Below, piece after piece: positions 1,521 through 30,304 of a stretch of 64,000 bases of DNA (the stretch's first letter is position 1; the number at the start of each line of letters is the position of its first letter). This stretch comes from Flectonema sp. DT1601 (lineage: Eukaryota). The position numbers and the translations under genes were made by a program. The DNA lies in assembly GCA_964019425.1 (NCBI GenBank), contig OZ025781.1, positions 1 through 64,000 of the forward strand. The letters run 5' to 3'. A model generated the notes under the pieces. That model did not search any database, was not told the origin of the DNA, and saw only the letters and a list, made by a program, of their open reading frames with translations.

Positions 1521-2194
1521 GAACCGCTTGGCATTTAATTCTGGCACCCTGATTTTAAGAGGAAGGAAATAAAGAACACGTTAACACAGGAAAGAAAGAA
1601 TTGGCGAAGTTAAATCCGCACTATGTCTACTGATCCTGACATGTCTTGTCAAACTGGCAAAAATACGAAAAATGAAAACAAACTAACATCAGATATTCAA
1701 GTCTCAAGGTTGTTCATCCGCGATGGGGTAAACTGTAGTGTGGTACTCGAGCCTCGGAAGAGGCCCCACGGTAGTTAGCACAGTCGGGGGATGGGCGGGT
1801 GGGAAAGAACTTGGCACACTGAAGTCGTAATAGACTTCGGCCATTGTTTTTCCTTTATCCTGTACCACAAACTACAGAAGAATGAACATTAAGAGAGAGG
1901 TAGAGTGAACGCAAAGCAAACACAAAGCTAAGATGTAAATGGATAACGCAGAACATCAAAGGCGCCGAATACCATTGAGCAGTTCCCTGTGAAAAGATAG
2001 GGAACCGCTTGGCATTTAATTCTGGCACCCTGATTTTAAGAGGAAGGAAATAAAGAACACGTTAACACAGGAAAGAAAGAATTGGCGAAGTTAAATCCGC
2101 ACTATGTCTACTGATCCTGACATGTCTTGTCAAACTGGCAAAAATACGAAAAATGAAAACAAACTAACATCAGATATTCAAGTCTCAAGGTTGT

Positions 2195-5098
2195 TCATCC
2201 GCGATGGGGTAAACTGTAGTGTGGTACTCGAGCCTCGGAAGAGGCCCCACGGTAGTTAGCACAGTCTACCACCACCGCATCGCCAGTAAAGAACCTCCGA
2301 ACCGCCAGTTCAACCTCCCGCTGGTGCCGAGACGTCGATATCACCACTGGGTCCACCCTCGAAGGAATGTCAGCCGGGTTCTCCGCAGACTTAACGTACT
2401 CCAAAGAAAACGTAACGTTCCTCGCCCGCAGACAATCCAAGGCCGAAACCGTTGCCCTATTCAGCAGCTCCGAGCGTATCGACATCCTCTTCCGGGCCGC
2501 CCCAAGAACAGAGGTGTTATCCACCCAGATCTTCACACAGCAGCCGTCACAAGTCGTCGGCATGTCACGAACCGTATTTCTCAGTGCAAGGCCTTCCAAA
2601 ACACTAATGTGGAGTCCAGCTTCACCAACCACCCACGAGTCCCCCATCACCGTCACCTCCGCCGTGTCATCATTGACAACGACGCCTCCCCAACCCTTCA
2701 ACGACGCATCGACAAAGATGCTGAAAGCCTGGCATTCCGGACGGAAGGACTCGCCGACCAGCCTAAGTTGGAGCACCGCACCGATCCAACCTCGCAGCTC
2801 ACGCACAACCGAAGGCGGCACAACAACTCGATCCTCCACCACCCTCACACCCCTGTTCAATCCATTCGACACTCGACGGAGGAACTTGAGCGCGAACCAA
2901 AAGCTGCCCGGAGACACGCCCGCCACAGCCGAAGCGTGTAGCAGCCTGCCCCCGAGCGACTCCAGGTCACCAGCCGTAATCCCAACAAAATCGACCCGTC
3001 CCACCTTCTCGCGTATCTTAGACGCCACAACCACCGTGTCTGCGTCATGGTCAAAGTCGACCCCCAAGAAGGTATACCGCCTCACCGCCGTGTGGCTATC
3101 CGCTTCCTTCCAGGTCAAGCGGAACTCGGACGCAGCCCCATCCAGATTCACGGTCGCCGCCAAAACCGCTTCCTCCGTCCCCACATAACGGATGTTGTCC
3201 ACAAAAACGTCCACCTTCACACCCTTCGCCGCCCACCTACCAGATACATACACAGGATCCCCCGCAGCCGCCGCCGCCAAGGTGTGCATAATCTCAGGCG
3301 CACACGCATGGCCCATTGGCAGCCTGCACAGTTCAAACCAACTCCCCTCCGAGGTCTGGAAACGAAACAAGTCCCTCGCGTCCTCTGGTATCTCTATGGC
3401 GTAGAAGCCGGTCCTGAAATCCCTCGTCGATCCACACTGCTCCCTCACCTGTTCAAGGTACTGGGAGATGTGGCCCAAAGGAACCTTGGGCTCATAAACC
3501 CCCTCCAACCTATCATTCGCATCACGGGTCCAAAGGATAAACCGTTGTCGAAGGCCCTCCGGTTTCTCCTCCAACACTGTGAACGGCACGTTCGTCGTAC
3601 GACCCGGGCCCTCCGCCGCCCGCGCCACCCCGTGCTGACACAACTCCCTCGCATGTCGCAATGCAAATGATGATGGCGCCCGTCTACCAGCATCCGTCGT
3701 CACCGTCGGTGCAAAGGTCATATCCCACACCTCATCGAAACGTCCACGGGCCTCCTCCGAAAGACGCCTTCGCAGCCCACCGACATCCATCGTACACACC
3801 CCACTCACGTGCAGAGGTGAATGCATCTCCGTCTCAGTAACCGGCAATCGCGTCCGTTTCCCCTTCCGCACGATACTGTGTCTTGTCGCCCCTGGCACAC
3901 TCCTGATCCTCCGATTCAAAGCAGCTGTGTCACCTTCCAAGTCTGCAGCGCACGAGCCATGTCCACCAGGTTTGACGAATACCTGAGAGTCACCCCCGCC
4001 AACTGAACACCGTCCTCCTTGTGTTTCAACAGACGAGACACCAAATGCCCCTCGGCCAGCCTTCCCTCTGCCAACGCCTTCACCAGAACCGCCGCCGCGC
4101 CCCGCTTTACGGAGTGGCCCGTAAAACCCTCCATACCCGGAGTTCTTCGCCAAACCGACGCGATCCTCTCGGTGTTGACGTCCGTGAGGCGCTCGAATGG
4201 ACGAAGAAAGCGCACCAATACCGCGATTTCTCCCACCAGATCTCCGCGAATAACCGACCATCTCGAAGGCACGTAAGGATCCGCCCGTCTGTGCTTCGGA
4301 AGTGTTCCCCAATCGACGATCACCTCCCCGTCCTCTACCAACAAGAAGTGATCCGAAGTGAGAGCGTGCACCTCTCCCCACCGAGACGCGGTCTTCCAAC
4401 ACACGAGCGCCGCCAACCGGATGCGAGCCTCTTGCGAGCCTGCCCAAGTCAGCAGTTCCTGTTTGCCCATCGGCAGCGCCTGCACCCGCGGAATCGTTCC
4501 TCCCGCAGCTCGCAGCGCGCCTGCCAAGCTCAACAACGGCTGGTTCGATAATCCGAGGTGGCGAAAAATCCCCGACAAAGCCTTTGCGTACTGCAACTGG
4601 CCTTGGGACGCCACGCCCGTAGCAACCACGAACAAAGCCGCTGTCTCTGCAGACATAGGGAGCTGTTGGTCCGCCGCCCAACGCTGCAACCTTGCCCAGA
4701 GGTTTCGGCGCTTCGCAGACGTTTCCGACGCCCACATCGAGGCAATGACGACCCCTAGTCGCTCCAAGGCTTCGTCCCGATCCACTCCCACCTCCTCGGT
4801 CCGGGGCTTCCGTTGTCCAACTCCTCCGGCTACGTGCTCCAGGACTACCTGTCCGAACAACGACGGGACCTCGTCCAGACCATCTCTCCACCCTCGTTTT
4901 CGGGATGTTTTTCCAACTGACCGTCCGAGAAGGTCCGCGTCGGACGCCAACGCCTTGCGCGGCAACGTTGTTCCGACGACGACGTCCACCCGTCGCTCCC
5001 CTACCAAGCCAGCCCCCGTGCCGGCCGCCAAGCAGGCAAGGACTCAATGACCCTTGCCTGCGGGACCGTTTTTTGCTGGTCCTGTGTACGGCCTCCAA
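2195..5098 (-). CDS. E1 reverse transcriptase-RNase H (DIRS-order); 5' part overlaps the YR ORF in the -1 frame
   Basis: RDFRTGFYAI, RLPMGH, VFVDNIRY, YTFLG; RNase H motifs FVDAS..GWGG, LE, WVDN, NPADIPSR. No ATG start. Confidence 0.9.
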   Translation of the reverse strand: MEAVHRTSKKRSRRQGSLSPCLLGGRHGGWLGRGATGGRRRRNNVAAQGVGVRRGPSRTVSWKNIPKTRVERWSGRGPVVVRTGSPGARSRRSWTTEAPDRGGGSGSGRSLGATRGRHCLDVGVGNVCEAPKPLGKVAALGGGPTAPYVCRDSGFVRGCYGRGVPRPVAVRKGFVGDFSPPRIIEPAVVELGRRAASCGRNDSAGAGAADGQTGTADLGRLARGSHPVGGARVLEDRVSVGRGARSHFGSLLVGRGRGGDRRLGNTSEAQTGGSLRAFEMVGYSRRSGGRNRGIGALSSSIRAPHGRQHREDRVGLAKNSGYGGFYGPLRKAGRGGGSGEGVGRGKAGRGAFGVSSVETQGGRCSVGGGDSQVFVKPGGHGSCAADLEGDTAALNRRIRSVPGATRHSIVRKGKRTRLPVTETEMHSPLHVSGVCTMDVGGLRRRLSEEARGRFDEVWDMTFAPTVTTDAGRRAPSSFALRHARELCQHGVARAAEGPGRTTNVPFTVLEEKPEGLRQRFILWTRDANDRLEGVYEPKVPLGHISQYLEQVREQCGSTRDFRTGFYAIEIPEDARDLFRFQTSEGSWFELCRLPMGHACAPEIMHTLAAAAAGDPVYVSGRWAAKGVKVDVFVDNIRYVGTEEAVLAATVNLDGAASEFRLTWKEADSHTAVRRYTFLGVDFDHDADTVVVASKIREKVGRVDFVGITAGDLESLGGRLLHASAVAGVSPGSFWFALKFLRRVSNGLNRGVRVVEDRVVVPPSVVRELRGWIGAVLQLRLVGESFRPECQAFSIFVDASLKGWGGVVVNDDTAEVTVMGDSWVVGEAGLHISVLEGLALRNTVRDMPTTCDGCCVKIWVDNTSVLGAARKRMSIRSELLNRATVSALDCLRARNVTFSLEYVKSAENPADIPSRVDPVVISTSRHQREVELAVRRFFTGDAVVVDCANYRGASSEARVPHYSLPHRG
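3916..5031 (-). CDS. E1 tyrosine recombinase
   Basis: Catalytic residues: KTASRWGE (R), PKH (K), GHSVKRG (HxxR), LLKH (H), TLRY (Y). Confidence 0.9.
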   Translation of the reverse strand: MAAGTGAGLVGERRVDVVVGTTLPRKALASDADLLGRSVGKTSRKRGWRDGLDEVPSLFGQVVLEHVAGGVGQRKPRTEEVGVDRDEALERLGVVIASMWASETSAKRRNLWARLQRWAADQQLPMSAETAALFVVATGVASQGQLQYAKALSGIFRHLGLSNQPLLSLAGALRAAGGTIPRVQALPMGKQELLTWAGSQEARIRLAALVCWKTASRWGEVHALTSDHFLLVEDGEVIVDWGTLPKHRRADPYVPSRWSVIRGDLVGEIAVLVRFLRPFERLTDVNTERIASVWRRTPGMEGFTGHSVKRGAAAVLVKALAEGRLAEGHLVSRLLKHKEDGVQLAGVTLRYSSNLVDMARALQTWKVTQLL

Positions 5099-7131
5099 CC
5101 AGTCCTCGGCACCATTGCCGGTCCCGTAGTCGTCTTTCTCACAGGCTTCACTTGCATACCGGCCTTCCTTGCCTTCGCCGTCGACTGGTCCAACTCCTCC
5201 TCACCCAATTGTTGAAGGTATCTCTCTCCGCCCAACCATCCATGCCCAGCCCTAATCGACTGGTACTCCAACAACCGGTGTAGCTCCTTGAGCGTCGCAC
5301 CTGTTCCTCCCGCAATTGTTGCCATTGCAGTTTCGGCCAACCTGCTCACCATCTCCTTCCCAACCGACGATGTACCCACCGAATATCTTTGCACAATTGC
5401 CTGTTGCAAGAAGTCGCGCTGCATTTATCCCTGCTCCCCGTAAGCTGCCCACTCTCCAGGCAAGACCGCCACCTGCGTCACCGGCCTCTCTGGCCCCATT
5501 TTCTCCGGGTTCCAATGACCAACGGTCCAGCCCTCATCCTCAAACTGTTCCGGTGTCAGCTCGAACATGGCATCAGCCTTCCCAACCAACACAAGAGTCA
5601 CCTTCTCCCCCTCCAAATCCACAACCATCCCCTTGTTCCCTACCCTCCGCACCTTCACTCCTGGAATCAGTGCCTTTGGGAAACGTACATTCTTCTCCTT
5701 CTTCCCTGCCACATGCTCCACCAAACTCCCCGTGCTGTTGGCAAAGCGCCCAATAGCTTCGGCCAACCCTTCAGGTGCCTGTTCTCTCTGCTGAAATTGG
5801 TGTTGAAACTGTTGTGTCTGTTGCTGTAACTGCAGCTGCTGTTGTAAATGCTGCTGCTGTTGTACCTGCTGCTGCTGTTGTAAACTCAACTGCTGCTGCA
5901 ACATGTCACATCGCTTTTGAAGTCCCACCAGGTCCTCCGCCTGTGGTGCCGCCGCGAAAGACTCCGCTTGCTGTTGATTCGCTAGCGTCTGTTGATGAAC
6001 CTGCTGCTCCAACTGACGCTGTTGATTGAGCATCGAATCCAAAATAGCCTGCTGCTCCCCAGCCTTCTTGAACTGTTCCTTCTGCTCCGCTACCAATCTC
6101 TCCTGATGTAGTTGCTGTTGTTCCAACAAGGCTTGCTGTTGCAGGTGCTGGTTCCTCCGAGCTTCTTGGTGCCCATCCTGGGACGCGAGCATTTTGTCCA
6201 CTGCCCGCTGCCGCTCGGCTTGTGAACGCTCAAACGCGGCGCGATCCTTCTGCTGCTGCAAAAGCTCTTGCTGCTGCCTTTCCAGCATTCCCTGCTGCAC
6301 CAACAGTCTCTTCCGCTGTTCCTCCCCCTGTCGCCCCACCTCCTCCATTATGGATGCGACCTCCTCCTCCGTCTTCACCTGTCGTGAGCAGACCTCGTCC
6401 ACCACCAAACCGGCATGATCTTGCCATTCCCCCACATCGTTGAGCGCCCTTGCCGCAGCCGCGCCCACTTCCTTCACCTCCTTCAACGACTCCGCAGCCT
6501 TCTGTTGCTCCGTCTGCACTTCAGTAAAAGCAGCCGAGGTTGCCGCAATCACCTTCTCCACCCTCTTTTCTGTCTTCATCTGGCCAGCCGTTTGCTGCTG
6601 CAAGGTGGCCATGTTCTCCTTCCGGAGCCTACCCACCGCCATACTTGTGGCCTTGGCAAGCCCAACAACTTCAGGGTTCCGCAAAGAAGCATCATCCTCC
6701 AACTGCGGTGGCGTTATCCCATCATGGGGCTCCACCACCGTTACAACGCCCCTCAAAGGCGTCAACACCCCAGGCTCCCCTGGCAGCAGTTGAGCCTTCA
6801 TCATTCTTTCTTTGAATGGCCCTGGTGCCTTCTCCGCCAGCATCGTCAATATGACGAATACCGCTCGCGCCGACAACACAGGCAGCGTGCCCTCCGCCAC
6901 GTCCAAGCAGCACGCCAGCAACCGATCGTTGCTCTTCCTCCTCCCGTCCCGGTCGTCCTCCTTCGTTGTAGCCAACCAAATGAGGTTGGCCTCTGCCTCA
7001 CCCAGGCACCTCACCAACACCCCCTGCCTATAGGTCAGGCTCACCTTCGTCCGGGTCAGTTGGCCCAGAATCGGCCGCAAGTTCTCTGCCAAAGAACTTG
7101 GCACACTGAAGTCGTAATAGACTTCGGCCAT
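5044..7131 (-). CDS. E1 gag-like coiled-coil protein, interrupted by an in-frame TAA at 5425-5427
   Basis: ORFs 5425-7155 and 5044-5424 are contiguous in one frame. Homologous to E2 gag across the stop (GWTVGHWNPE / GWSVQHWNPE; AIVQRYS / AIVERYS). ATG at 7131 (MAEVYYDF, compare E2 MAKSYDF). Confidence 0.8.
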
Positions 7132-7286
7132 TGTTTTTCCTTTATCCTGTACCACAAACTACAGAAGAATGAACATTAAGAGAGAGGTAGAGTGAACGCA
7201 AAGCAAACACAAAGCTAAGATGTAAATGGATAACGCAGAACATCAAAGGCGCCGAATACCATTGAGCAGTTCCCTGTGAAAAGATA

Positions 7287-7384
7287 GGTTTGCGGGTTTG
7301 CGGGTTTGCGGGTTTGCGGGTTTGCGGGTTTGCGGGTTTGCGGGTTTGCGGGTTTGCGGGTTTGCGGGTTTGCGGGTTTGCGGG
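7287..7384 (+). repeat. (GGGTTTGC)n, ~12 units between E1 and E2
   Basis: Direct reading. Confidence 0.99.
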
Positions 7385-8299
7385 GAACCGCTCTGCATTT
7401 TCTATGCGATATCTGCTATAGAAATGTAAAAGTAATAATGAAATAGAAAACAGAGAGGGAGTAAGCAAGCAATTAATACTAAAGGAGAATGACGGAATCC
7501 AATTAAGGATAATTGAAATTGATCAGCTATATCGAATTCTGACATGCCGTCGTGTCTCATCCATAAAGTATATCGCAGCTGTGATGGGAGATGATGGTTG
7601 TGAATTATAGTAATCGATAATTGAAGTATTGTCCACGTACGAAGTATATTCATTTGCGACGGGGGTAGCAGGGCGCCACAGAGGCGAAATCGTCCGGACC
7701 AGGCTGCGAAAGGCATGCATGGCCACGGGACGGGGGCGCCGTCACGGGGGTCGGGTGGGTGGGAACAAAAAAGTTGTTTTCTTTAAAGCAAAGCCAGCCA
7801 AACCTGAAAGTAGAAAGAACAATATTCACCAGAGAATAACGGCGAAATAAAGTAAAATCTCTTTACAAGAAGTCGGCGCCAAGCGCTAAATCAAGGCTGT
7901 GATATCGCTATGCCATTTGAGCTGTTCCCTGTAAAGGTGAGGGAACCGCTCTGCATTTTCTATGCGATATCTGCTATAGAAATGTAAAAGTAATAATGAA
8001 ATAGAAAACAGAGAGGGAGTAAGCAAGCAATTAATACTAAAGGAGAATGACGGAATCCAATTAAGGATAATTGAAATTGATCAGCTATATCGAATTCTGA
8101 CATGCCGTCGTGTCTCATCCATAAAGTATATCGCAGCTGTGATGGGAGATGATGGTTGTGAATTATAGTAATCGATAATTGAAGTATTGTCCACGTACGA
8201 AGTATATTCATTTGCGACGGGGGTAGCAGGGCGCCACAGAGGCGAAATCGTCCGGACCAGGCTGCGAAAGGCATGCATGGCCACGGGACGGGGGCGCCG

Positions 8300-11056
8300 T
8301 CACGCCACCACCACATCGCGAGTCAAAAATTCCTGCACCGCAAGTTGGACATCACGCATATGAGCAAGAGAGTCTATCTTGCAAGGCTCAATGCGTGATG
8401 GGAGGTCGGCTGGGTTCTGTGCAGAAACGATGTATCTCATCTCAAATGAAATCTGTCGTTCCCTAAGAAATGTAATGGACTGAACTACTGCATCATTAAG
8501 TCGGCGGCATCTCATAGACATCCGCTTGCGCGCAACGCCCAAAACCGATGTGTTGTCAATCCAGAACGCCACAGACCGCCCGTTGCAAGAATCCGGCAAT
8601 GCCACAACAGTATTCCTGAGAGCCAGTGCCTCCAGAATATTAATATGTAGCGACTGCTCAGACGGCCCCCAGGAGTTCCCAAGAACGGTCACCTCAGCCG
8701 TCGCATCGTCAACGATCACACCCCCCCAGCCACGAAGCGAGGCATCGATAAATACAGTAAAGAGCTTCTCCTGGTGGCTGAAAGGTTCGGAAATCAACCT
8801 CCCATTAACCGCTTCATTTGACCATGATGCCAGCTCTCTCTGAACAGACCGTGGTATCCGTACAACATCAGAAGGTGCCCGTCTGCCGCTATTCAGGCTG
8901 TTCGAAATCCTTCGGATGAACTTCATCGCAAACCAGAAAGCCCCTGGTGAGGTGGCCGAGATAGCGGAAGCATGCATGAGACGGCCCCCAAGGGACTCGA
9001 TCGCACCTGCCCCCATCGATAAGAGGTCACACTCCATGATCTTCCTCCTAATCTTCTCACTGGCACGAACCTCATGGCTGCCATGGTCGAAGTCAACGCC
9101 AAGAAATGTATACTTCTGGGCCGCCGTATTGCTATCGGCCGGCTTCCATGTCAGGTTACAGCGATCAGCAGTCTCGTCCAAATTATAGGTCGCCGCGAGC
9201 ACAGCGCCAGAATCACCAGTGTAGCGAATGTTATCAATGAAGATATCAACATCCACACCAGTCGCTGCCCACCCATCACTCACATAAGACGGATCACCAG
9301 CTGCTGCCGCCGCAAGCGTGTGCATGACTTCGGGAGCACACACATGCCCCATCGGCAGACGGCAGAGCTCATACCACAACCCGTCGGCTGCACGAAAGCG
9401 AAAAAGGTCACGCGCATCCTCTGGTATTTCAATGGCATAGAACCCGGTCTTAAAGTCCCTCGTCGTGGCACACTCAGCCCTCACGGAATCGAGGTAACCA
9501 GAAACGTGCCTGAGCGGAACCTTCGCCTTGTACAGCCCCTCTGCCCAGCGGTTCGCATCCCTCGTCCAGAGGATAAACCGCTGCCTCAGCCCCTCCGGCT
9601 TCTCCTCCAACACCGTGAACGGGACATTCCCTGATCGCCCGGGCCCAATCGCCACCCGAGCAACCGAGTGTTCAACAAGGAGGCCAGCATGCTCCGACGA
9701 TAAAGATGATTCGGGAGGTTGCCTGCGCCTGCCAACTACAGGGTAGAAAGTCATCTTCCAAACTGTGTCAAACCTCTCCCTCGCATCAGCTGAAAGGCGG
9801 CTGCGCAATCCCTGAACATCCATCGGCTCAATCGACCCCACGTGAAGAGGCGACCTACGTTCCCCCTCCGTCGCCGGAATACGTGTCCTCTTCCCCCTGC
9901 GGGCAATGCTATGCATCGAAGTGCCACGAGCGACGTTCCTACCCAGCGCAGTATACACATCCGCCCTACTCAAAGCAATCTCGTCACCTTCCAAGTCTGG
10001 AGAGCGCGTGCCGTGTCGACTGCATTCGAGCTGTACCTCAGCGTCGTTTGCGATATCGCCGGCCCTCCTTCCGAGTGCTTCAGGAGGCGAGACACCAGTA
10101 CCGCATCGGTAATCCTCCCATCTGCGAGGGCGGCCATCAGAACGGATGCCGCACCTCTTTTTATGGAGTGCCCTGTCAACCCTTCCATCCCAGGGACCTG
10201 TTGCCAGTGGTGCGCAATCCTCCCTGTTGTTGCCTCCGCGAGGAGGTCGAACGGGGACAGAAGCCTGACGAGAGCTGCAATCTCTCCCACCAAATCGCCC
10301 CGGATCACCGCCCACCTCGAAGCGACGTACGGGTTCCCGCGGCGGTGCTTCGGCAGGACCCCCCAATCCACAATCACCTCCGAGTCTTCGACCAAAATGA
10401 AGTGCTCTGATGTCAAGAGGCGCACCTCCCCCCAGCGAGATGCCGTCTTCCAGCAAACGAGAGCCGCCAGCCTCAGCTCCGGTCCCAGTTGCCGCACCCA
10501 ACCTAGCAGTTGCTGCCTCGTCATCGGCCTTGCCTGCGTCACCGGAATCGACGCACCGTCCGTCCTCAAAGCGCCTGCGAGACTTAGAAGGGGCTGGTTC
10601 TCCACTCCCAGGTGACGGAAGACACCCGACAGTGCCTTGGCATACTGAAGTTGCCCCTGGGGGCGGACACCTGTTGCCACGACGAATAGAGCCGCGGTCT
10701 CGGCATCGACGGGGAGCCCTCGCGACCGAGCCCATCTCTCCATCCTTCCCCAGAGGTTGCGTCTCTTCGACGTCGTCTCTGTTGCCCAGAGGTTGGCAAT
10801 CACGATCCCGAGCCTTTCTAGAGCCACGTCGTAGTCGACGTCTGCCTCCCCAGTTCTTCCGGTATCGTGCTGCTCCCTGGCAATGTGCTCCAGCACAACC
10901 CTTCCAAAGAGCGATGGGATGCCCGGCGAACCCTTTGTAGCTGTAGTCACTACCACTGGGTGCCCACACCCGCCGGACCCTTGTCTTGGGGACATCCTCA
11001 TAACGCTGCCAACCAGTGCCCCGTAGCTGGCTGGTTTTGTGGGGGCAAGGATTCAT
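8300..11056 (-). CDS. E2 reverse transcriptase-RNase H
   Basis: RDFKTGFYAI, RLPMGH, IFIDNIRY, YTFLG, FIDAS..GWGG, NPADLPSR. Confidence 0.9.
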   Translation of the reverse strand: MNPCPHKTSQLRGTGWQRYEDVPKTRVRRVWAPSGSDYSYKGFAGHPIALWKGCAGAHCQGAARYRKNWGGRRRLRRGSRKARDRDCQPLGNRDDVEETQPLGKDGEMGSVARAPRRCRDRGSIRRGNRCPPPGATSVCQGTVGCLPSPGSGEPAPSKSRRRFEDGRCVDSGDAGKADDEAATARLGAATGTGAEAGGSRLLEDGISLGGGAPLDIRALHFGRRLGGDCGLGGPAEAPPREPVRRFEVGGDPGRFGGRDCSSRQASVPVRPPRGGNNREDCAPLATGPWDGRVDRALHKKRCGIRSDGRPRRWEDYRCGTGVSPPEALGRRAGDIANDAEVQLECSRHGTRSPDLEGDEIALSRADVYTALGRNVARGTSMHSIARRGKRTRIPATEGERRSPLHVGSIEPMDVQGLRSRLSADARERFDTVWKMTFYPVVGRRRQPPESSLSSEHAGLLVEHSVARVAIGPGRSGNVPFTVLEEKPEGLRQRFILWTRDANRWAEGLYKAKVPLRHVSGYLDSVRAECATTRDFKTGFYAIEIPEDARDLFRFRAADGLWYELCRLPMGHVCAPEVMHTLAAAAAGDPSYVSDGWAATGVDVDIFIDNIRYTGDSGAVLAATYNLDETADRCNLTWKPADSNTAAQKYTFLGVDFDHGSHEVRASEKIRRKIMECDLLSMGAGAIESLGGRLMHASAISATSPGAFWFAMKFIRRISNSLNSGRRAPSDVVRIPRSVQRELASWSNEAVNGRLISEPFSHQEKLFTVFIDASLRGWGGVIVDDATAEVTVLGNSWGPSEQSLHINILEALALRNTVVALPDSCNGRSVAFWIDNTSVLGVARKRMSMRCRRLNDAVVQSITFLRERQISFEMRYIVSAQNPADLPSRIEPCKIDSLAHMRDVQLAVQEFLTRDVVVA
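9970..11001 (-). CDS. E2 tyrosine recombinase
   Basis: KTASRWGE, GHSIKRG, LLKH, TLRY. Confidence 0.9.
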   Translation of the reverse strand: MRMSPRQGSGGCGHPVVVTTATKGSPGIPSLFGRVVLEHIAREQHDTGRTGEADVDYDVALERLGIVIANLWATETTSKRRNLWGRMERWARSRGLPVDAETAALFVVATGVRPQGQLQYAKALSGVFRHLGVENQPLLSLAGALRTDGASIPVTQARPMTRQQLLGWVRQLGPELRLAALVCWKTASRWGEVRLLTSEHFILVEDSEVIVDWGVLPKHRRGNPYVASRWAVIRGDLVGEIAALVRLLSPFDLLAEATTGRIAHHWQQVPGMEGLTGHSIKRGAASVLMAALADGRITDAVLVSRLLKHSEGGPAISQTTLRYSSNAVDTARALQTWKVTRLL

Positions 11057-12453
11057 TTTCCCCTGCCCAACTGCCCGTTTTTTGAACTTGGAACATACGC
11101 CCTTGGAGGAGCAGCCGGTGGCCCCTTATGGGTCGCCCCCACCCGGTGCCCCTTCGACACTTTCTGCGCTGCCTTCCTTGCCTGCGCTGTCGACGGGGTA
11201 TCCCTCGCAGCATCAAGGGTTTCGTAGTATGCTTCAGCTCCCCGCGGCCCGTTCTCTGTGCGCAGCAGCTGCCACTCCATCATCTGGTGTAGTGCCGCTA
11301 TGGCCCCTTCCGTACCTCCCAAAACAGCCCTCTCAACTGCATTCGCAAGCCTCTTCACTACCTCACTCGCAACTGCCCCAGAGCCCCCGGAATACCTCTC
11401 AACAATCGCGCGCCTCAGCAGCGAACGGCACACGTCATCACGCTCCGCATATCCCAGCCACAACTCCGCATTCCTCGCGATGTCCTCAACAGGTGCATGC
11501 GACGCGGCAATTTCCGGGTTCCAATGCTGCACCGACCAGCCCCCTGCCCTGAACTCCTCTGGTGTGAGGCGCCACAGCCCACTGTCGTTGTGCAAGACTG
11601 CAATCGTCACATCAGCCGGTGCCACGCAGACAACAATCCCTCTTGAGCCTCCGTCCGTAACCTTGGAGCCTACCACCATGCTTGGAGGAAAACCCTCTGT
11701 TACCTGTGGCTTTGTTGCAGCTTGCTGGATCGCTGCCGTAATGGAGCTCATCATTGAGTCCTGATCCGTCCTAACCGGCGGTGGCCCTTGTGGAACAACT
11801 TGCGGCCTTCCCATACCTGCCTTCAGGGTTTCAATCTCACCTTCCAGTCGTGCCATCACGGACTGCTGCTGCTGAACGAACCCCTGCATCATCTCCTCCA
11901 TCCGTGTCTGGCGGGACTCCGCTTCCGTCATGTGCCGCCTTGTCGATTGCGCACCGCGATGTAGATCCGCAAACGCCTGACCAGCCTCGCTCCTCAGTCC
12001 TTGGATCTTCTCTTCGCCTTGGCGTAAGCTCTCAGCCGTTGCCTTCCTCAACACATCAGTGTCGACGCGCAAACTCTCCATTGCATCCGCAGCTTCATCA
12101 TGGGTCACCAGGCGGTTCGAATCCCCCGAAGCCAGGCGACTGCTTGCCTTCGCAGCCCGCTCCGCAACGCCGGCCCTATTCACCGAAGACATCATTGCCA
12201 ACACTACCAACATCTTTTTGATTGAAACCTTTTCAATCGCTGCATACTGCACCCCAAGGCAAAGGGCAACAGTAAGCCTAACCAGGCTCTGCAACTCCCT
12301 ATCGGACTCCAACAAAGCCAAGTCAACTGGTATTGGTACAAGCTTCACCAACTTCACCAAGTCAACGTGCTGTCTTTGCGGAACTTCTCCGACCCTCCGT
12401 CCCCATGCCTCAGCTAATGCTGACGGGAACTCGAAATCGTAGCTTTTTGCCAT
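11053..12453 (-). CDS. E2 gag-like protein
   Basis: First ORF of the element, ATG 46 nt after the spliced-leader junction, similar to E1 ORF1. Confidence 0.8.
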   Translation of the reverse strand: MAKSYDFEFPSALAEAWGRRVGEVPQRQHVDLVKLVKLVPIPVDLALLESDRELQSLVRLTVALCLGVQYAAIEKVSIKKMLVVLAMMSSVNRAGVAERAAKASSRLASGDSNRLVTHDEAADAMESLRVDTDVLRKATAESLRQGEEKIQGLRSEAGQAFADLHRGAQSTRRHMTEAESRQTRMEEMMQGFVQQQQSVMARLEGEIETLKAGMGRPQVVPQGPPPVRTDQDSMMSSITAAIQQAATKPQVTEGFPPSMVVGSKVTDGGSRGIVVCVAPADVTIAVLHNDSGLWRLTPEEFRAGGWSVQHWNPEIAASHAPVEDIARNAELWLGYAERDDVCRSLLRRAIVERYSGGSGAVASEVVKRLANAVERAVLGGTEGAIAALHQMMEWQLLRTENGPRGAEAYYETLDAARDTPSTAQARKAAQKVSKGHRVGATHKGPPAAPPRAYVPSSKNGQLGRGK

Positions 12454-12499
12454 TTAAAAAACAAAAAAGTTGTTTTCTTTAAAGCAAAGCCAGCCAAAC

Positions 12500-12537
12500 C
12501 AATAAAGTACAGAAACTGTAGCTTTAGAATCGTTGGT
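12500..12537 (-). other. Reverse-transcribed spliced leader (38 nt) ACCAACGATTCTAAAGCTACAGTTTCTGTACTTTATTG
   Basis: Has the conserved euglenozoan SL 3' end CAGTTTCTGTACTTTATTG and a diplonemid-type 5' part. Joined exactly at the AG acceptor visible in the unspliced A2 copy (7804-7805). Confidence 0.9.
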
Positions 12538-13013
12538 AGACACCGCCCACATCTTTCTTACGATGGCGCGTACCCGCTTCTCTGCTGCCTTTATGGTGAC
12601 TTCGTCTTCTGATTGAGTCCTTCTTGTTGGTCTGCGTTGCAAGATCTGTAAAGTTGCTTGCTCCATTATTCCTTTTCCTTTGACCAACTCGTCTTGCCGC
12701 ATTTTGGCGATCATGCTCCCGGTTTTTTTGCTTAATAAAGTTATACTTGGCCGGGTCCAAGTAAACTTCCTTTCCCGTACTGCGATTCAATTTTTCCGCA
12801 CCTGCTGGGGCCAACGGCCTGGACCTAAAAAAGCCTTCGTTGGCTTTGGTTTCGGGGTCCAGGTGTTCTTATTTTTCTTCGAAGCTTTTTGAATTGACCT
12901 GTCGATGTAGTCGTGTTGATTGGCTTCCATTTCCGTCAATACATCGCTGAGCCTGGCCCCCCGTACAACATATCCTTGTTGTACACGAAGCAGCGATAGA
13001 CTCCTATTTCCCA
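12534..13013 (-). repeat. 480-bp duplication of an internal E3 segment (16006-16485)
   Basis: Sequence identity on reading; ORF fragments identical to the E3 gag end and YR start. Confidence 0.95.
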
Positions 13014-13469
13014 TTGGTTTAGGGAGGGTGGGAATTTTAAATTATTAAATTAATTTAAAGATGCAAGAATGCCTGGAAAGGCAGATAGGCATAAACGAAT
13101 CAATCGTAATGCACTATAAAAAGGATGGAAGAAACAAATGGTCGTATTATACTATAGGCTCGACGAATCAATCATGTTGCACTATAATAAAATAAATGGT
13201 AAGACTGCTCACATTAAGAACTGATAAGACAATGGATTGCTACATAGAAATTTGTATCATAAGAATAAAGTGGTGAACTACAGCGCTGATCCTGAGAGAT
13301 TCCCATATTGGTGTTAGGGGAATCACTTTTTTAGGATCAGCCATAGTTCTGGTATGGAACTTTTGGGAGTAGAAAGTAAGATGAAGCAAGTTATAAAGAT
13401 ATAACCTTGCAAAACTGGAATGTATACATGTACTAAAAGGAAAAGACTTGATAACTCATTCTTTCAATT

Positions 13470-16286
13470 TTATCTGCAGATGCTTTCTTTATTCTTACCC
13501 ATTAAGACAAAGAATAAATAACTAAGAATGGAATATTGATTACCACCACCCCCACGCAAGTCAAAGAAACGCCCCAACGCAAGTGCTGCCTCGGAACGTT
13601 GTTGTTTGATATTAGCGCCGTCAGGACAAATGCGAGACGGAAAATCTGCTGGATTGCATTTTGTAGAAACCCAGTTGAGCCTATAAGTGCATTGTAGTCT
13701 ATTAAGATGATTCATAATGTAATTTACTTGTCTGTTGAGTGCCATGGAACGGACTGACATGCCCTTCTTTGTTGAGTATAAGACGGTTGTATTATCCACG
13801 TAAATATCCAAATGTGATGCTTTCGAGATCGATCGAAGCGTAGAAGTAAGAGCAGTGGCCTCAAGGACGTTGATATGCTCACTACTTTCCTTCTCAGTCC
13901 ATCGTGCCCCCAGGATGTCCATCTCATAATTATGATCAAAGATCACAGCTCCCCAGCCCTTCATGGAAGCGTCGACGAAGATCATCCTAGAATCATCATC
14001 ATCATCATCTCTCTTCGTTTCCCCTACATGTACGTTCCGTGTTGTTAGTACCTCCTTAGACCAGTTTGAAATTTCCTTCCTAACTGAGCTGGGGATGGGC
14101 ACCACGTGTTCAGTCTGAACGACCCCACGGTTTAATGAATTCGTGACCCTGCGAAAAAACTTTAGCGCAAACCAGTATTTACCAGGATGTATGTGAGTAA
14201 TTGCCGAAGCATGTAGGAGGCGACCAGCTAAGCTTTCGATCTTCTCCGCGGTGATGTTATCGAGGCAAGTATTAAGTATCCTCCTGCGTAGCTTTTCGGC
14301 GACGGCAACAGTACACCTAGTATGGTCAAACCTTACACCAAGAAAGTCGTATTCTTTAGCGAGTTCCTGAGTTTCTTCTTGCTTCCAAGTCACGTTACAA
14401 CGTCTCGCCACCTCATTTATTCTTGCTGTTGCCTCATTTACACACCCGAATGAGCCAGTTATCCTGATATTGTCAATCCAAATATCGGTAACTACCCCCC
14501 GATATGTGAAAGCAGGCTTGGCAAATGTAGGATCGCCTGCAACAGTTGCTGTTAGAGAATGCATAATCTCAGGTGCCGCCATATGTCCCATCGGCAACCT
14601 GGTTAGCTCAAACCACTCCCCTCGCTCATCCTGGAATCTGAAATATTTCCTAGAGCGCTCAGGTATGGAAACCTGGTAAAACCCCGTCTTCAAGTCCCAT
14701 TGGGATGATGTCTCCCTCGTCACTTGAGAGAGGTACTGAGCAATGTGCTCCAAGGGAACCTTCGGCTTGTACCCGAGTTCGTGCATCATCAAGTTGGCCT
14801 CCTTCGTCCACAAGATGAATCGCTGCCGTGTTCCAGTTATCCGTTCTTCAAGTATTGTAAAGGGTATTGATTCCAATATCCCGGGGCTGCTTGTTTGGGT
14901 TGCAACCCCTGCCTCTACTAGCCGGCGTGCATGCTGAGACTGCAGACAAGACTCCCTATGACTCTTTTTATACTGATGGCTTTGGTGAGTACCTTGCCGA
15001 CACGGGTTGAACGTAAGGTCCCATACCTCTTCAAACCTCCTGCGTGTCCCATCAGTCATCATCCGTTTTACCTCTTGAACGTCAATGGTCCCCACTTCCT
15101 TTACGTGTAGAGGCGTCGCCCTCTCTTCCTCGGTTGAAGGGAGGCGAGTGGTCTTCGACTTCCGAGTGAAGTTCTGCATAAGTCTCCGCGCAGTTCTTGG
15201 AATTACAAATGTTGGGTTATGCGGCTTGTGTTCAGGGAGAGAGCCAGCGACCTGTCCGACCCTGCATATCTTAACGTCGTTTCTGATATCTGCTGGTTTG
15301 CCGTTTCGTGTTTGGCTAGTCGACTTATGAGCATCAGCGGAATAACTAATCCTGTCTGTTTCTTCTCGAAAATGAACTTTATTGCACCGCGTTTTATGCT
15401 GTGAGCACTGTAATTTTCCATGCGAGAATCCTTCTTCCAAAGTCCTGTGAGCTTTGCAGTGTCGACTTTTGTTAAACGATCGAAGAATCCCAACCTCATG
15501 ATGGCTCTGTATATCTCCTCCGTCCATCTTCCGGTGATTACCGCGAACCTTGAAGCCGTGTACGGATTCTCCCTCTTTCCCTTCGGAATCTGGTTCCAGT
15601 CCACAATTACTGTTAAAGGGTCGCATTGAATGAAGCTGCCCGAGGACAGCGCCGCGACCTCCCCCCAGCGAGACATTGTTTTCCAGGCAATCATTGCGGC
15701 GGTTGAAACCCCTAGCTCCTGTGTTTGACACCATTCTTCCAGGATTCCCCTTGGGATCGGAGTTGCTTGTGACTCGGGCACCGTAGCACCGTCTGCCCTT
15801 AGGGCCACCTGAAGGCTCCTGAGGGGTTGGTTTTCCATCCCGAGGTGTTTCATAATACCCGACAATGCCTTTGCGTAGTTTAGTAAACTTTGTGACTTCG
15901 CCCCTGTAGCGGTTACGAATAAGACCGCAGAATTTGCATCCATGGGTAGGCTCCTGTCGGTGACCCACTTCACATACCTCGACCATAATCGTTTTCTCTG
16001 GTCGATGGTAGACACCGCCCACATCTTTCTTACGATGGCGCGTACCCGCTTCTCTGCTGCCTTTATGGTGACTTCGTCTTCTGATTGAGTCCTTCTTGTT
16101 GGTCTGCGTTGCAAGATCTGTAAAGTTGCTTGCTCCATTATTCCTTTTCCTTTGACCAACTCGTCTTGCCGCATTTTGGCGATCATGCTCCCGGTTTTTT
16201 TGCTTAATAAAGTTATACTTGGCCGGGTCCAAGTAAACTTCCTTTCCCGTACTGCGATTCAATTTTTCCGCACCTGCTGGGGCCAA
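13470..16286 (-). CDS. E3 reverse transcriptase-RNase H
   Basis: WDLKTGFYQV, RLPMGH, IWIDNIRI, YDFLG, FVDAS..GWG, NPADFPSR. Confidence 0.9.
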   Translation of the reverse strand: MAPAGAEKLNRSTGKEVYLDPAKYNFIKQKNREHDRQNAARRVGQRKRNNGASNFTDLATQTNKKDSIRRRSHHKGSREAGTRHRKKDVGGVYHRPEKTIMVEVCEVGHRQEPTHGCKFCGLIRNRYRGEVTKFTKLRKGIVGYYETPRDGKPTPQEPSGGPKGRRCYGARVTSNSDPKGNPGRMVSNTGARGFNRRNDCLENNVSLGGGRGAVLGQLHSMRPFNSNCGLEPDSEGKEGESVHGFKVRGNHRKMDGGDIQSHHEVGILRSFNKSRHCKAHRTLEEGFSHGKLQCSQHKTRCNKVHFREETDRISYSADAHKSTSQTRNGKPADIRNDVKICRVGQVAGSLPEHKPHNPTFVIPRTARRLMQNFTRKSKTTRLPSTEEERATPLHVKEVGTIDVQEVKRMMTDGTRRRFEEVWDLTFNPCRQGTHQSHQYKKSHRESCLQSQHARRLVEAGVATQTSSPGILESIPFTILEERITGTRQRFILWTKEANLMMHELGYKPKVPLEHIAQYLSQVTRETSSQWDLKTGFYQVSIPERSRKYFRFQDERGEWFELTRLPMGHMAAPEIMHSLTATVAGDPTFAKPAFTYRGVVTDIWIDNIRITGSFGCVNEATARINEVARRCNVTWKQEETQELAKEYDFLGVRFDHTRCTVAVAEKLRRRILNTCLDNITAEKIESLAGRLLHASAITHIHPGKYWFALKFFRRVTNSLNRGVVQTEHVVPIPSSVRKEISNWSKEVLTTRNVHVGETKRDDDDDDSRMIFVDASMKGWGAVIFDHNYEMDILGARWTEKESSEHINVLEATALTSTLRSISKASHLDIYVDNTTVLYSTKKGMSVRSMALNRQVNYIMNHLNRLQCTYRLNWVSTKCNPADFPSRICPDGANIKQQRSEAALALGRFFDLRGGGGNQYSILSYLFFVLMGKNKESICR
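15203..16186 (-). CDS. E3 tyrosine recombinase
   Basis: KTMSRWGE, AHSIKRG, LAKH, TLRY. Confidence 0.9.
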   Translation of the reverse strand: MIAKMRQDELVKGKGIMEQATLQILQRRPTRRTQSEDEVTIKAAEKRVRAIVRKMWAVSTIDQRKRLWSRYVKWVTDRSLPMDANSAVLFVTATGAKSQSLLNYAKALSGIMKHLGMENQPLRSLQVALRADGATVPESQATPIPRGILEEWCQTQELGVSTAAMIAWKTMSRWGEVAALSSGSFIQCDPLTVIVDWNQIPKGKRENPYTASRFAVITGRWTEEIYRAIMRLGFFDRLTKVDTAKLTGLWKKDSRMENYSAHSIKRGAIKFIFEKKQTGLVIPLMLISRLAKHETANQQISETTLRYAGSDRSLALSLNTSRITQHL

Positions 16287-17605
16287 CGGCCTGGACCTAA
16301 AAAAGCCTTCGTTGGCTTTGGTTTCGGGGTCCAGGTGTTCTTATTTTTCTTCGAAGCTTTTTGAATTGACCTGTCGATGTAGTCGTGTTGATTGGCTTCC
16401 ATTTCCGTCAATACATCGCTGAGCCTGGCCCCCCGTACAACATATCCTTGTTGTACACGAAGCAGCGATAGACTCCTATTTCCCAAGCTAACCATTTCAG
16501 GCATCCCCTCCCAGGAGTTTACCTGTTCTGCCACCCTAATCCAGTCTACAAGCATTTCGAAATATGCGAGTAGTACTCGGTCACCTGGTTTGACGGTGGT
16601 ACAACCGTTGGTGTATTTAAAACGCAAGTCTCTAATGAGACCGGTCGCGTCCTCCTCAATGGCATCTTTCCATTGTAAGACATCCTTCGAGTCCTCGATT
16701 CTCTTAGTTGTAAAGAAAACCTTCGTTTGTGTTGGGGACGTCTGTAATGTGGGAGCATCCTCCGGAACATTTCTGTTTGCAATTGCCGTCAGCCTGTCCA
16801 CTCGTTCGTCCGAAGCGGCAGATTGTTCGAGCCCCGTCACCGATTGAGAGGTAGACCTCTTCGCGGCATTCTCCAAACTCTTCAAGATCCTGTCGATCTT
16901 TTTATCCTGGGCTACAGCCATTTCACGATTTTCGGTAATGGCCCCCCGCATCTTCGCCATCTCCGAATGTTGATCCCTGATCGCTGAATCAGTCATCCCA
17001 GCCAAATTGCTTGTATTCTGGCCTTGGCGAGATAATTCGTCGGCAATAATGGCGTGTCCCTGCTCCAATGCCTGTTGACGGTTTCTCACGTTAACAGTTT
17101 CATGCTCCAATACAGTCTGTCTCTGCCCCGCTGAATTCAAAGCTTGCGAGGTAACTTGTTCAAGAACCGCTTGCCTCTGCACGGTGTTTGATACCACTTG
17201 GCTCGCACCCTCCATAACATGGTGAAACTCCGTACGGGAGACGGGTAAACCCTCCGTCACCCCACATGCTCGTAGCATTTCATCGAATCTCTGCACATTC
17301 CTGTTTCGCAGATGTGAGAGCATAACTTCCTTTGGCCTCATCGCTATTCCTTGCAACGAGTCTCTCGAAACACCCAGGAAGGCCATCAACATATCATTAA
17401 TGATGCTCTCAGCTTGATGCTGTACACACCATCCCCCTAAGTTCATTCTTACGTCATCCATTTTGTATGTACCTCGTTTTAACTCCTCTTCGCCGAAAGT
17501 GCTTTTCCAAGCATCTTCCAAACTTGAAGGAAATCTAAAATCGTACGTACTTATTACAGTCGAGGGGGATGGTTGGTCGATTATCATAGGCGTTTGTTGA
17601 TCCAT
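16259..17605 (-). CDS. E3 gag-like protein
   Basis: First ORF; N-terminal YDFRFPSSL matches the YDF.(F/V)PS motif of E1/E2; coiled-coil character. Confidence 0.78.
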   Translation of the reverse strand: MDQQTPMIIDQPSPSTVISTYDFRFPSSLEDAWKSTFGEEELKRGTYKMDDVRMNLGGWCVQHQAESIINDMLMAFLGVSRDSLQGIAMRPKEVMLSHLRNRNVQRFDEMLRACGVTEGLPVSRTEFHHVMEGASQVVSNTVQRQAVLEQVTSQALNSAGQRQTVLEHETVNVRNRQQALEQGHAIIADELSRQGQNTSNLAGMTDSAIRDQHSEMAKMRGAITENREMAVAQDKKIDRILKSLENAAKRSTSQSVTGLEQSAASDERVDRLTAIANRNVPEDAPTLQTSPTQTKVFFTTKRIEDSKDVLQWKDAIEEDATGLIRDLRFKYTNGCTTVKPGDRVLLAYFEMLVDWIRVAEQVNSWEGMPEMVSLGNRSLSLLRVQQGYVVRGARLSDVLTEMEANQHDYIDRSIQKASKKNKNTWTPKPKPTKAFLGPGRWPQQVRKN

Positions 17606-17887
17606 TTTAAATTATTAAATTAATTTAAAGATGCAAGAATGCCTGGAAAGGCAGATAGGCATAAACGAATCAATCGTAATGCACTATAAAAAGGATGGAA
17701 GAAACAAATGGTCGTATTATACTATAGGCTCGACGAATCAATCATGTTGCACTATAATAAAATAAATGGTAAGACTGCTCACATTAAGAACTGATAAGAC
17801 AATGGATTGCTACATAGAAATTTGTATCATAAGAATAAAGTGGTGAACTACAGCGCTGATCCTGAGAGATTCCCATATTGGTGTTAG

Positions 17888-23997: not shown

Positions 23998-24093
23998 CGG
24001 GGTTTGAGCCGAGGCCGATTGGGTGCGGGGGCACCACCCCATCCACTGCACTATGACGCCCCCCAAATATGCCGTATTTTATTTATTTATACC

Positions 24094-24177
24094 GTAACAG
24101 GGAATTGAACCCGTGCCACGGCTACCGAATAGACTTAAGGTCGGTGACCATATCCACTCGGCTATGCAGTCCGTTAC
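24094..24177 (-). pseudogene. tRNA-Leu(TAA)-like degenerate sequence
   Basis: GTAACGG/CTGTTAC terminal stem, TAGCCGAGTGG A box, GAC-CTTAA-GTC arm, GGTTCAATTCCC B box; spacing is non-canonical. Confidence 0.45.
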
Positions 24178-30246: not shown

Positions 30247-30304
30247 AATTGCTTTTTCCTGTGAAACGTACCCACTGATTCTTACCAATATTAGGTTGCG
30301 AAAT

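Follow-up and report, generated by a model that had tools for sequence, protein, structure and literature searches.

A well-supported −1 frameshift and likely UGA readthrough at the end of gag in three VIPER-clade retrotransposons

In VIPER retrotransposons the open reading frames (ORFs) for the tyrosine recombinase (YR) and the reverse transcriptase (RT) overlap (PMC6681497; PMC12278014), and the sections of these two papers drawn on here give no mechanism for their translation. For Ngaro, programmed −1 frameshifting to express YR was proposed by Poulter and Butler (2015) (as cited in an excerpt of PMC13003380), retroviral and LTR gag-pol genes use either slippage or readthrough (in an excerpt of PMC5009743), and luteoviruses use both recodings, at separate genes (in an excerpt of PMC3542737). 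Frameshifting in DIRS-order elements, to which Ngaro belongs, is therefore not itself new; the combined slip and readthrough was absent from the literature searched, key reviews lying beyond that search.

The three elements described here, E1, E2, and E3, lie in a window of 64,000 nucleotides (the whole stretch of DNA analysed, from Flectonema sp. DT1601) and are VIPER-clade YR retrotransposons in a spliced-leader (euglenozoan) genome. Their gag-like, YR, and RT/RNase H ORFs follow one another in the order that defines the VIPER clade, their RT motifs agree by eye with the VIPER translations in the supplement of PMC6681497, and their RTs are 23–25% identical to that of a TATE-like locus (L003). 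The basis of this placement is ORF order, repeats, and YR and RT motifs. All junction features of the three elements are on the minus strand.

1519..7288, minus strand: E1, a complete VIPER-like element (self-blastn)
7383..8304, minus strand: 3' repeats of E2, with B1 at 7941-8304, A2 at about 7764-7940, and B2 at 7383-7746 (repeat comparison)
12500..12537, minus strand: exon, presumably a spliced leader (SL), fused to the splice-acceptor AG of the E2 A repeat (junction seen in sequence)
12530..13013, minus strand: duplicate, 484 nt, of the E3 junction (16002-16485), 99.8% identical

E1 has split direct repeats (A1 7091-7288, B1 2000-2266, A2 1804-2001, B2 1519-1785), each pair 100% identical by self-blastn, and is flanked on both sides by (GGGTTTGC)n arrays. 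Insertion in such arrays, which may be telomere-type repeats, is reminiscent of TATE. The E2 copy headed by the putative SL spans gag through the 3' repeats, with A1 truncated by the SL and an intact splice acceptor retained in A2, and from its sequence it looks like a cDNA of a trans-spliced mRNA. E3 retains its A pair (A2 at 13034-13316) and has an interrupted B2, and the 484-nt duplicate sits between this A2 and the SL end of E2.

The reading frames are arranged as follows.

5044..7131, minus strand: E1 gag, 695 codons, stop codon UGA at 5044-5046, with a nonsense UAA in this copy at 5425-5427 (ORF list)
11053..12453, minus strand: E2 gag, 466 codons, stop codon UGA at 11053-11055 (ORF list)
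16259..17605, minus strand: E3 gag, 448 codons, stop codon UGA at 16259-16261 (ORF list)
3916..5043, minus strand: E1 tyrosine recombinase ORF, in frame with gag and without an AUG until codon 103 (ORF list)
9970..11052, minus strand: E2 tyrosine recombinase ORF, predicted Cre-like fold (alignment and structure model)
15203..16258, minus strand: E3 tyrosine recombinase ORF, in frame with gag (ORF list)
2195..5200, minus strand: E1 −1-frame ORF, stop-free over all of YR and then RT-RNase H (ORF list and shuffles)
8300..11125, minus strand: E2 −1-frame ORF, over YR into RT-RNase H (ORF list and shuffles)
13470..16340, minus strand: E3 −1-frame ORF, over YR into RT-RNase H (ORF list and shuffles)

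Behind the gag UGA and in the gag frame, YR extends for 375 (E1), 360 (E2), and 351 (E3) codons. In a 31-sequence alignment, residues R165, K194, R258, H285, and Y299 are invariant and H254 nearly so, and the structure model (pLDDT 89.5) has Cre and Tre as its best PDB matches; the protein thus has the R-K-H-R-H-Y set and the predicted lambda/Cre fold of a tyrosine recombinase. Sequence searches against Pfam and against the PDB returned no YR match. The in-frame UAA of E1 gag, which the original prediction did not mention, is private to this copy: two other copies with an intact 695-aa gag (P0165, P0166) have Gln there, and a single run X1 contig, at depth 2, has a sense base. That run gave no useful coverage of the E1–E3 junctions or of the junction in a LINE elsewhere in the window.

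Just before the gag stop, each element carries a zero-frame heptamer of the form X_XXY_YYZ where the −1 frame is open (3/3), at the positions originally proposed.

5068..5074, minus strand: E1 slippery heptamer A_AAA_AAC, gag frame, 7 codons before UGA (sequence)
11077..11083, minus strand: E2 slippery heptamer A_AAA_AAC, gag frame, 7 codons before UGA (sequence)
16298..16304, minus strand: E3 slippery heptamer U_UUU_UUA, gag frame, 12 codons before UGA (sequence)

Across 15 ORFs of the window, totalling 11,460 codons, there are 47 canonical in-frame heptamers (those at the three junctions counted in), or about 6% per last-15-codon stretch. The −1 ORFs open 42 (E1), 14 (E2), and 12 (E3) codons upstream of the heptamer and measure 1001, 941, and 956 codons up to where RT ends. 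None of the three has a stop over YR, against 9–19 expected. Holding the protein constant under each element's codon usage, 14.7, 16.0, and 18.8 stops are expected in E1, E2, and E3, and none of 20,000 sequences each is stop-free; shuffling each element's own codons, 9.2, 9.2, and 11.0 are expected, and 1, 0, and 0 of 20,000 are stop-free. The open −1 frame over YR, as first noticed in the original prediction, is not due to chance and is kept open by selection. As protein, this linker is poorly conserved (18–35% identity versus 44–69% in the YR frame), and RT has no start AUG common to the families, so keeping the −1 frame open would serve a purpose only for ribosomes that enter it at the top. 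Given the selection against stops and the same layout in distant relatives, a −1 frameshift from gag into the RT frame across YR is well supported and highly probable.

Two of the heptamers are followed by hairpins.

5032..5061, minus strand: E1 hairpin, 11 bp, 6 nt past the heptamer, gag UGA in an 8-nt loop (folding, z −2.1)
11043..11068, minus strand: E2 hairpin, 9 bp (two of them G-U), 8-nt spacer, UGA in the loop (folding, z −0.2)

The E1 stem beats shuffled sequences (5/200 as good), which bears out the original description of it. Its E2 homologue is present with UGA in the loop, but is no better than shuffles, and E3 has no convincing stem after its heptamer (z +1.1); these tests compare simple hairpins with shuffles. 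Between the E1 and E2 stems there is just one two-sided change.

The comparison with VIPER and TATE homologues proposed alongside the original prediction bears out this layout, on junctions read by eye from supplement files 1 (VIPER) and 2 (TATE) of PMC6681497. In each of the five distinct published VIPERs read there (Bodo, three from Crithidia, and T. cruzi), a heptamer stands 7–14 codons ahead of a single UGA, YR continues the gag frame, and the −1 frame is open as far as RT. The heptamer is G_GGA_AAC in B. saltans, A_AAA_AAC in T. cruzi, and A_AAA_AAA, A_AAA_AAC, or G_GGA_AAC in the C. fasciculata copies, and in T. cruzi a stem of 10 bp, its sequence unlike the E1 stem, follows at a distance of 6 nt and has UGA in the loop. 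In the three TATE entries examined, A_AAA_AAC, U_UUA_AAU, or U_UUA_AAC with a 6–9-bp stem immediately precedes the YR domain, and the −1 frame is open to RT. Of the best 150 RT representatives, 60 are extended N-terminally by at least 200 aa, and in half of these (30/60) both YR motifs can be recognised, correctly spaced, as a −1-frame shadow, against 0/60 in the +1 control; 18 have the shadow of only one motif and 12 of neither. A fourth family (P0120/P0122) has the KKR...LNP shadow as in E1 and E2, P0030, P0031, and P0040 have gag-like sequence joined to RT without YR, and for P0007, P0015, P0019, and P0029 the junction is ambiguous from RT-frame proteins alone. Searches for related loci found one in metagenomes, without the junction, no match in viral contigs, and three in genome contigs: L002 covers a portion of YR, where the −1 frame is open, but not the junction, L003 has YR and RT fused in one ORF, and L004 is uninformative. 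The closest named homologues are from Diplonema papillatum, where gag-YR-RT "fusions" make up 7/8 matches. We rejected these as natural fusions, since copies of one family are joined at differing points and several have no catalytic Tyr, a pattern to be expected from gene models.

Access to YR would depend on the gag stop. One stop separates in-frame gag and YR in E1–E3 (computed), as originally claimed, and in the five published VIPERs (by eye), and this stop is UGA in all eight (three computed, five by eye). The original prediction had UGA always followed by RUC, which is so in E1 (UGA-GUC), E2, and E3 (both UGA-AUC) but in only 4/8 families; UGA-A is found in 7/8 and UGA-purine in 8/8. By comparison, UGA occurs at YR stops in 4/8 VIPERs and at none of three TATE gag stops, which have nothing in frame downstream. 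Conservation in the YR frame begins upstream of any AUG common to the families. The conservation of UGA at the gag stop and the lack of a common AUG make readthrough into YR the best reading of these sequences, and a likely one. Type I–III readthrough contexts include UAG-CARYYA, UGA-CUA/CGG, and UAG-G with a 3' structure, and UGA-GUC and UGA-AUC are absent from them in the passages of PMC3542737 drawn on here; the gag stops of E1–E3 may work alike though outside these types. No 3' stimulator after UGA stands out in E1, E2, or E3 (z −1.1, +0.7, and −0.9). A LINE in the window has ORF1-UGA-CUAG-ORF2 in frame, the type II motif as given in that source, which suggests that this host can use UGA readthrough. 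Against readthrough, UGA-A is no classic leaky context, UGA is frequent at other stops as well (3/7 host ORFs), and T. cruzi has an AUG immediately after the stop (by eye). A reading of UGA as a sense codon in the host code was rejected, since long host ORFs follow the standard code with no internal UGA.

Other routes to YR would leave the frameshift to RT in place. Free YR could arise by termination-reinitiation or by scanning to the next AUG past the gag UGA, which would suit the T. cruzi UGA-AUG and the first AUGs at codons 18 (E2), 25 (E3), and 8 (Crithidia copy 3, by eye), and termination-reinitiation is an established viral mechanism (in the part of PMC3542737 drawn on here). We nevertheless consider this route unlikely. 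Crithidia copy 2 has Val at the position of the copy 3 Met (by eye), reinitiation has no need for UGA in 8/8 VIPERs, and the first AUG of E1 stands at codon 103, so the original claim of no ATG before conserved YR residues holds for E1, with E2 and E3 having the earlier AUGs just given. The 43 codons preceding this E1 AUG, which contain two predicted helices, evolve as YR coding sequence, because third positions change most (substitutions at 65%, versus 33% at first and 28% at second positions) and identity is higher in frame 0 (60%) than in −1 (24%). Distinctly improbable, in our judgement, is a separate YR mRNA made by trans-splicing to some internal AG that precedes the YR AUG. The host trans-splices and there are 21–25 AGs within 300 nt of each first YR AUG, but no pyrimidine-rich acceptor like that of gag lies ahead of the YR AUGs of E1–E3: the best internal AGs reach 0.57–0.63 pyrimidine (U 0.23–0.30) versus 0.73–0.80 (U 0.50) at gag acceptors. 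This test is weak, since host ORF acceptors go as low as 0.57 and overlap the internal AGs; a second mRNA would, in addition, leave the shared gag/YR phase, the fixed UGA, and the conserved pre-AUG codons of E1 unexplained.

Dispensing with recoding altogether, YR and RT could come from separate trans-spliced mRNAs or their own AUGs, with the overlap reflecting compaction; many RT homologues are indeed called as 500–570-aa proteins with a Met near the RT start, and in E2 an AUG overlaps the UGA in the −1 frame. We regard this as very improbable, since it gives no reason for a stop-free yet unconserved linker of 350 codons or for heptamers at the same place in 8/8 VIPERs and 3/3 TATEs. In addition, the RT homologues differ in where the Met falls, and several families have UUG or GUG as the codon that overlaps the UGA. 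That the stop is always UGA might suggest decoding as selenocysteine or by a dedicated suppressor tRNA in place of a near-cognate leak, and kinetoplastids possess selenocysteine machinery. The use of UGA at half of the YR stops, the standard code of long host ORFs, and an Rfam search of the window in which no family, SECIS and SL included, passed threshold make such decoding very improbable too.

Under the favoured combination of frameshift and readthrough, a single spliced-leader mRNA would likely yield Gag, Gag-RT, and Gag-YR in E1–E3, the frameshift side of this original claim being strongly supported and the readthrough side less sure. Ribosomes would pause at the hairpin and, very probably, as in established −1 frameshifting, a minority would slip at the heptamer, translate about 350–380 poorly conserved linker codons over YR, and continue into RT-RNase H to make Gag-RT. 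Most non-slipped ribosomes would stop at the gag UGA and release Gag, and a few would probably decode UGA through a near-cognate tRNA (by analogy with yeast, the residue at UGA-A might be Trp) to make Gag-YR. With slip and stop in series, Gag would exceed Gag-RT and Gag-YR in a fixed ratio, and fusion to Gag would let both enzymes be packaged. The proposed "two-way switch" was an overstatement: the events fall in series, the hairpin has to be unwound before the UGA in its loop is decoded, UGA lies outside the stem in several families, and regulation is not evident.

We lean slightly toward a Euglenozoa-wide VIPER/TATE design that slips past the recombinase, in which a −1 site ahead of YR leads through a 350-codon shadow frame to RT; to this, VIPER would add UGA-A readthrough in a new context within about 40 nt, giving three products from one site, and TATE would add instead a second, upstream −1 slip. 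If true, this would offer a testable answer to how fully overlapping recombinase and RT are expressed in VIPER and TATE, in hosts whose mRNAs are taken as monocistronic, and a small natural example in which frameshift and readthrough compete over the same few codons. It would also supply a new UGA-A readthrough context and native recoding signals for trypanosomatid and diplonemid ribosomes, and would change annotation, the RT protein beginning in Gag; where gene models place introns across these junctions, they are probably artefactual.

Compared with known systems, E1–E3 share with VIPER (as presented in the portions of PMC6681497 drawn on here) the gag-YR-RT/RH order, the A1...B1-A2-B2 repeats, the YR and RT motifs, the overlapped YR and RT, and an RT ORF of similar size (948 aa aligned in T. 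cruzi versus 941–1001 codons); they differ in a host outside the species of that study, in their TATE-like insertion in (GGGTTTGC)n arrays, and in a gag in which no zinc knuckle was seen. With TATE they share insertion in repeats, here putatively of telomere type, and the heptamer and stem before the YR domain with −1 open to RT (by eye), but TATE reaches YR by a first −1 slip from gag into a long ORF2 with an N-terminal extension, has no stop before YR, and ends gag in UAA or UAG, whereas the YR of E1–E3 occupies 351–375 codons in the gag frame. Ngaro has split direct repeats as well, but its genes run gag-RT-YR, overlap only briefly, and use the slip to reach YR. In E1–E3 the slip would bypass YR, which is overlapped completely and lies behind a gag-frame stop. 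Like retroviral and LTR gag-pol genes (−1 slip in MMTV and HIV-1, UAG readthrough in MuLV), E1–E3 have X_XXY_YYZ and putative low-ratio enzymes fused to Gag, and E1, with a weaker counterpart in E2, has the spacer of 5–8 nt and the GC-rich stem; unlike in retroviruses and luteoviruses, both outcomes would here fall within 7–14 codons and lead to two fully overlapping enzymes.

The junction between gag, tyrosine recombinase (YR) and reverse transcriptase (RT) in E1, E2 and E3, the three minus-strand VIPER-clade retrotransposons of the window, is as originally predicted in its heptamers, stops and frames, all of which are confirmed from the sequence: in each element YR lies in the gag frame behind a single UGA, and the -1 frame has no stop across the entire YR and into RT-RNase H. 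The slippery heptamers, all in the gag frame, are:

5068-5074, minus strand: E1, A_AAA_AAC, 7 codons before the UGA
11077-11083, minus strand: E2, A_AAA_AAC, 7 codons before the UGA
16298-16304, minus strand: E3, U_UUU_UUA, 12 codons before the UGA

With the YR protein fixed and synonymous codons drawn at random, 14.7-18.8 stops are expected in the -1 frame over YR, and 0 of 20,000 outcomes per element were stop-free; with YR's own codons shuffled, 9.2-11.0 stops are expected and 1, 0 and 0 of 20,000 outcomes were stop-free (E1, E2 and E3, respectively). Across 15 window ORFs, which total 11,460 codons, heptamers number 47, with the three junction sites included. The open stretch of the -1 ("shadow") frame starts shortly above the heptamer, no start AUG is common to the RTs, and identity is 18-35% in the shadow frame versus 44-69% in the YR frame; the shadow is kept stop-free yet is not conserved as protein. 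Judged from the sequence, -1 frameshifting from gag to RT is very probable. Stems had also been claimed for E1 and E2: that of E1 beats shuffled sequences (z -2.1), the E2 stem does not (z -0.2), and E3 does no better than shuffles (z +1.1), leaving E1 alone with such a stem. An in-frame UAA interrupts the gag of E1 at 5425-5427 in this copy alone: two cluster members have a full-length 695 aa gag with Gln at the site, and a sense base also appears in one low-depth contig.

A heptamer and stem at matching positions in VIPER and in TATE agree with the prediction from programmed -1 frameshifting. Locus scans for relatives yielded no VIPER junction; published junctions of both were read by eye from the available portions of the PMC6681497 supplements (files 1 and 2). 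In all five distinct VIPER elements there, a gag-frame heptamer lies 7-14 codons before one UGA, YR follows in frame and the -1 frame is open to RT; heptamer phase and single UGA are kept in 5/5. The heptamers and stop contexts, by eye, are:

B. saltans VIPER: G_GGA_AAC, UGA-AGU
C. fasciculata VIPER, first copy: A_AAA_AAA, UGA-AUC
C. fasciculata VIPER, second copy: A_AAA_AAC, UGA-ACC
C. fasciculata VIPER, third copy: G_GGA_AAC, UGA-AGC
T. cruzi VIPER: A_AAA_AAC, UGA-AUG (junction in 2 copies)

In the first Crithidia copy an upstream T-run is one base off, and the gag frame was set by the zinc knuckle. In the T. cruzi element the geometry of E1 recurs with a different sequence: the spacer is 6 nt, the stem has 10 bp and the loop holds the UGA. 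E3 and two of the Crithidia copies have the UGA past any stem. Among RT protein matches, 22 of 73 (the window's own families included) carry a -1-frame shadow of both YR motifs. Among the best 150 representatives, a long N-terminal extension is present in 60; of these, 30 have both shadows correctly spaced, 18 have one and 12 have none, and the +1 control gives 0. RTs called at 500-570 aa lie outside this score. Three VIPER-like homologues (P0030, P0031 and P0040) join gag C-terminal sequence to RT without YR or its shadow, and we propose that they are either deleted derivatives or gene-model artefacts.

For YR itself, readthrough of the UGA would be a moderately probable route. The gag stop is UGA in 8/8 VIPERs, UGA-A in 7 (window computed, the rest by eye from partial sources); the stops that close YR, subject to the same overlap, are UGA in 4, UAG in 2 and UAA in 2 (window computed, the rest likewise by eye), whereas the TATE gag stops, which no in-frame ORF follows, are UAA, UAA and UAG (the TATE-like locus L003 computed, the rest by eye). 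At 50% UGA and with independent families, eight UGAs of eight would arise by chance in 0.4% of cases, though the independence of the families is incomplete. E1 lacks an early YR AUG, as noted originally, but E2 and E3 have AUGs at codons 18 and 25; the 43 codons before the first AUG of E1 evolve as YR coding sequence in comparison with E2 and contain two helices by prediction. As splice acceptors, internal AGs rank below those of gag, though no lower than some host acceptors. In yeast, UGA-A favors Trp-tRNA (PMC4748822, in part). Against readthrough, the VIPER stop context falls outside types I-III (as defined, like the type II motif, in the available text of PMC3542737) and T. cruzi has UGA-AUG; no 3' stimulator stands out after the UGA in E1-E3. 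Frameshift and readthrough acting jointly are, on the same reading of the junctions, somewhat favored. The term "two-way switch" needs correction: the hairpin is unwound before the UGA in its loop is decoded, and so can hardly drive both events. We propose instead two branch points in series, in which the ribosome would meet the slip site first and then the UGA.

The residues that form the catalytic site of tyrosine recombinases are present in the YR frame, whose structure prediction is confident (pLDDT 89.5), with Cre as best structural match. The closest named homologues of E1-E3 are Diplonema papillatum proteins. The direct repeats of E1 are split, in the order A1...B1-A2-B2, and the element is set between arrays that may represent the telomere repeat of the host and a target site of TATE type. 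The arrays, and a duplicated piece of E3, lie at:

422-1517, 7294-7381 and 17887-18471: (GGGTTTGC)n arrays flanking the elements
12530-13013, minus strand: duplicated E3 fragment, 99.8% identical to 16002-16485

E2 starts with an exon (12500-12537, minus strand), which we take to be the spliced-leader (SL) exon, joined exactly at the AG of its own splice acceptor, behind the E3 fragment; the pyrimidine-rich acceptor persists in the A2 repeat. Because the SL exon meets the AG of an acceptor surviving in A2, E2 has the appearance of a cDNA copied from a trans-spliced mRNA with gag, YR, RT and 3' repeats. It shows that one long mRNA from gag to the 3' repeats existed; shorter mRNAs are also compatible. 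The stretch copied in the E3 duplicate is precisely that from the end of gag, through heptamer and UGA, to the beginning of YR, and E3, this fragment and SL-E2 are probably a chimeric insertion made by template switching. Elsewhere in the window, a fourth VIPER family is represented by a 5'-truncated RT (18479-19675, plus strand, and 19850-20427) that begins directly in the repeat array and has a 174-nt direct repeat downstream, a long satellite with units of ~29-32 nt and higher-order repeats occupies 20471-24082, and a common non-coding repeat with a tRNA-like 3' motif lies at 106-380, 30688-30963 and 24100-24141, one copy inverted.

A further element of the window may be recoded as well:

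24682-30303, minus strand: LINE-like element, ORF1 of 569 codons with its stop at 28594-28596

Its ORF2 has no AUG before LLLKAGDVERNPGP, presumably a 2A-like motif, which is followed by APE-RT. ORF1 ends in UGA-CUAG, the type II readthrough motif of PMC3542737, in frame with ORF2, and this suggests readthrough followed by StopGo. Tandem fragments of the SL 3' end lie directly upstream of ORF1 (30302-30430, minus strand).

In the TATE sequences available in the supplement, gag of L. braziliensis and T. theileri finishes with A_AAA_AAC and a UAA stop, and a long ORF2 lies in -1. Immediately ahead of the YR domain, another heptamer with a stem of 6-9 bp occurs in both of them and in a third entry, and from it the -1 frame is open to RT in all three (by eye). 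From these sequences, TATE appears to rely on two -1 sites one after the other, the first leading from gag to ORF2 and the second, just before YR, from ORF2 to RT. The B. saltans TATE is described as a single ORF (PMC6681497, in part), and L003 has YR and RT fused and lacks a canonical heptamer:

86-5373, in a bacterial MAG: L003, gag ending U_UUU_UAG, fused YR-RT ORF in -1

Its place in a bacterial MAG is likely contamination (compare Oceanobacter in PMC6681497).

The decoding scheme of the VIPER junction was not found in the searched literature. In the text available, the terms "readthrough", "stop codon" and "translation" are absent from PMC6681497, where all three uses of "frameshift" refer to a mutation; PMC12278014 contains neither "frameshift" nor "readthrough"; PMC3783388, PMC5633606 and PMC10161547 give no mechanism; and the Atkins 2016 review, in its first 300,000 characters, contains no DIRS, VIPER or Ngaro. 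Literature searches returned no publication that, judged by its title or the opening of its abstract, treats VIPER/TATE recoding, and a remark in Lorenzi 2006, Poulter and Goodwin 2005 or Repbase is possible. The YR/RT overlap in VIPER and TATE is already published (PMC12278014 and PMC6681497, in the parts available), -1 frameshifting has been proposed for the Ngaro YR (Poulter and Butler 2015, as quoted in the accessible part of PMC13003380), and E1-E3 match the gene order and repeats of VIPER as described in the available text of PMC6681497. The junction is real and is conserved within an element family that is already known.
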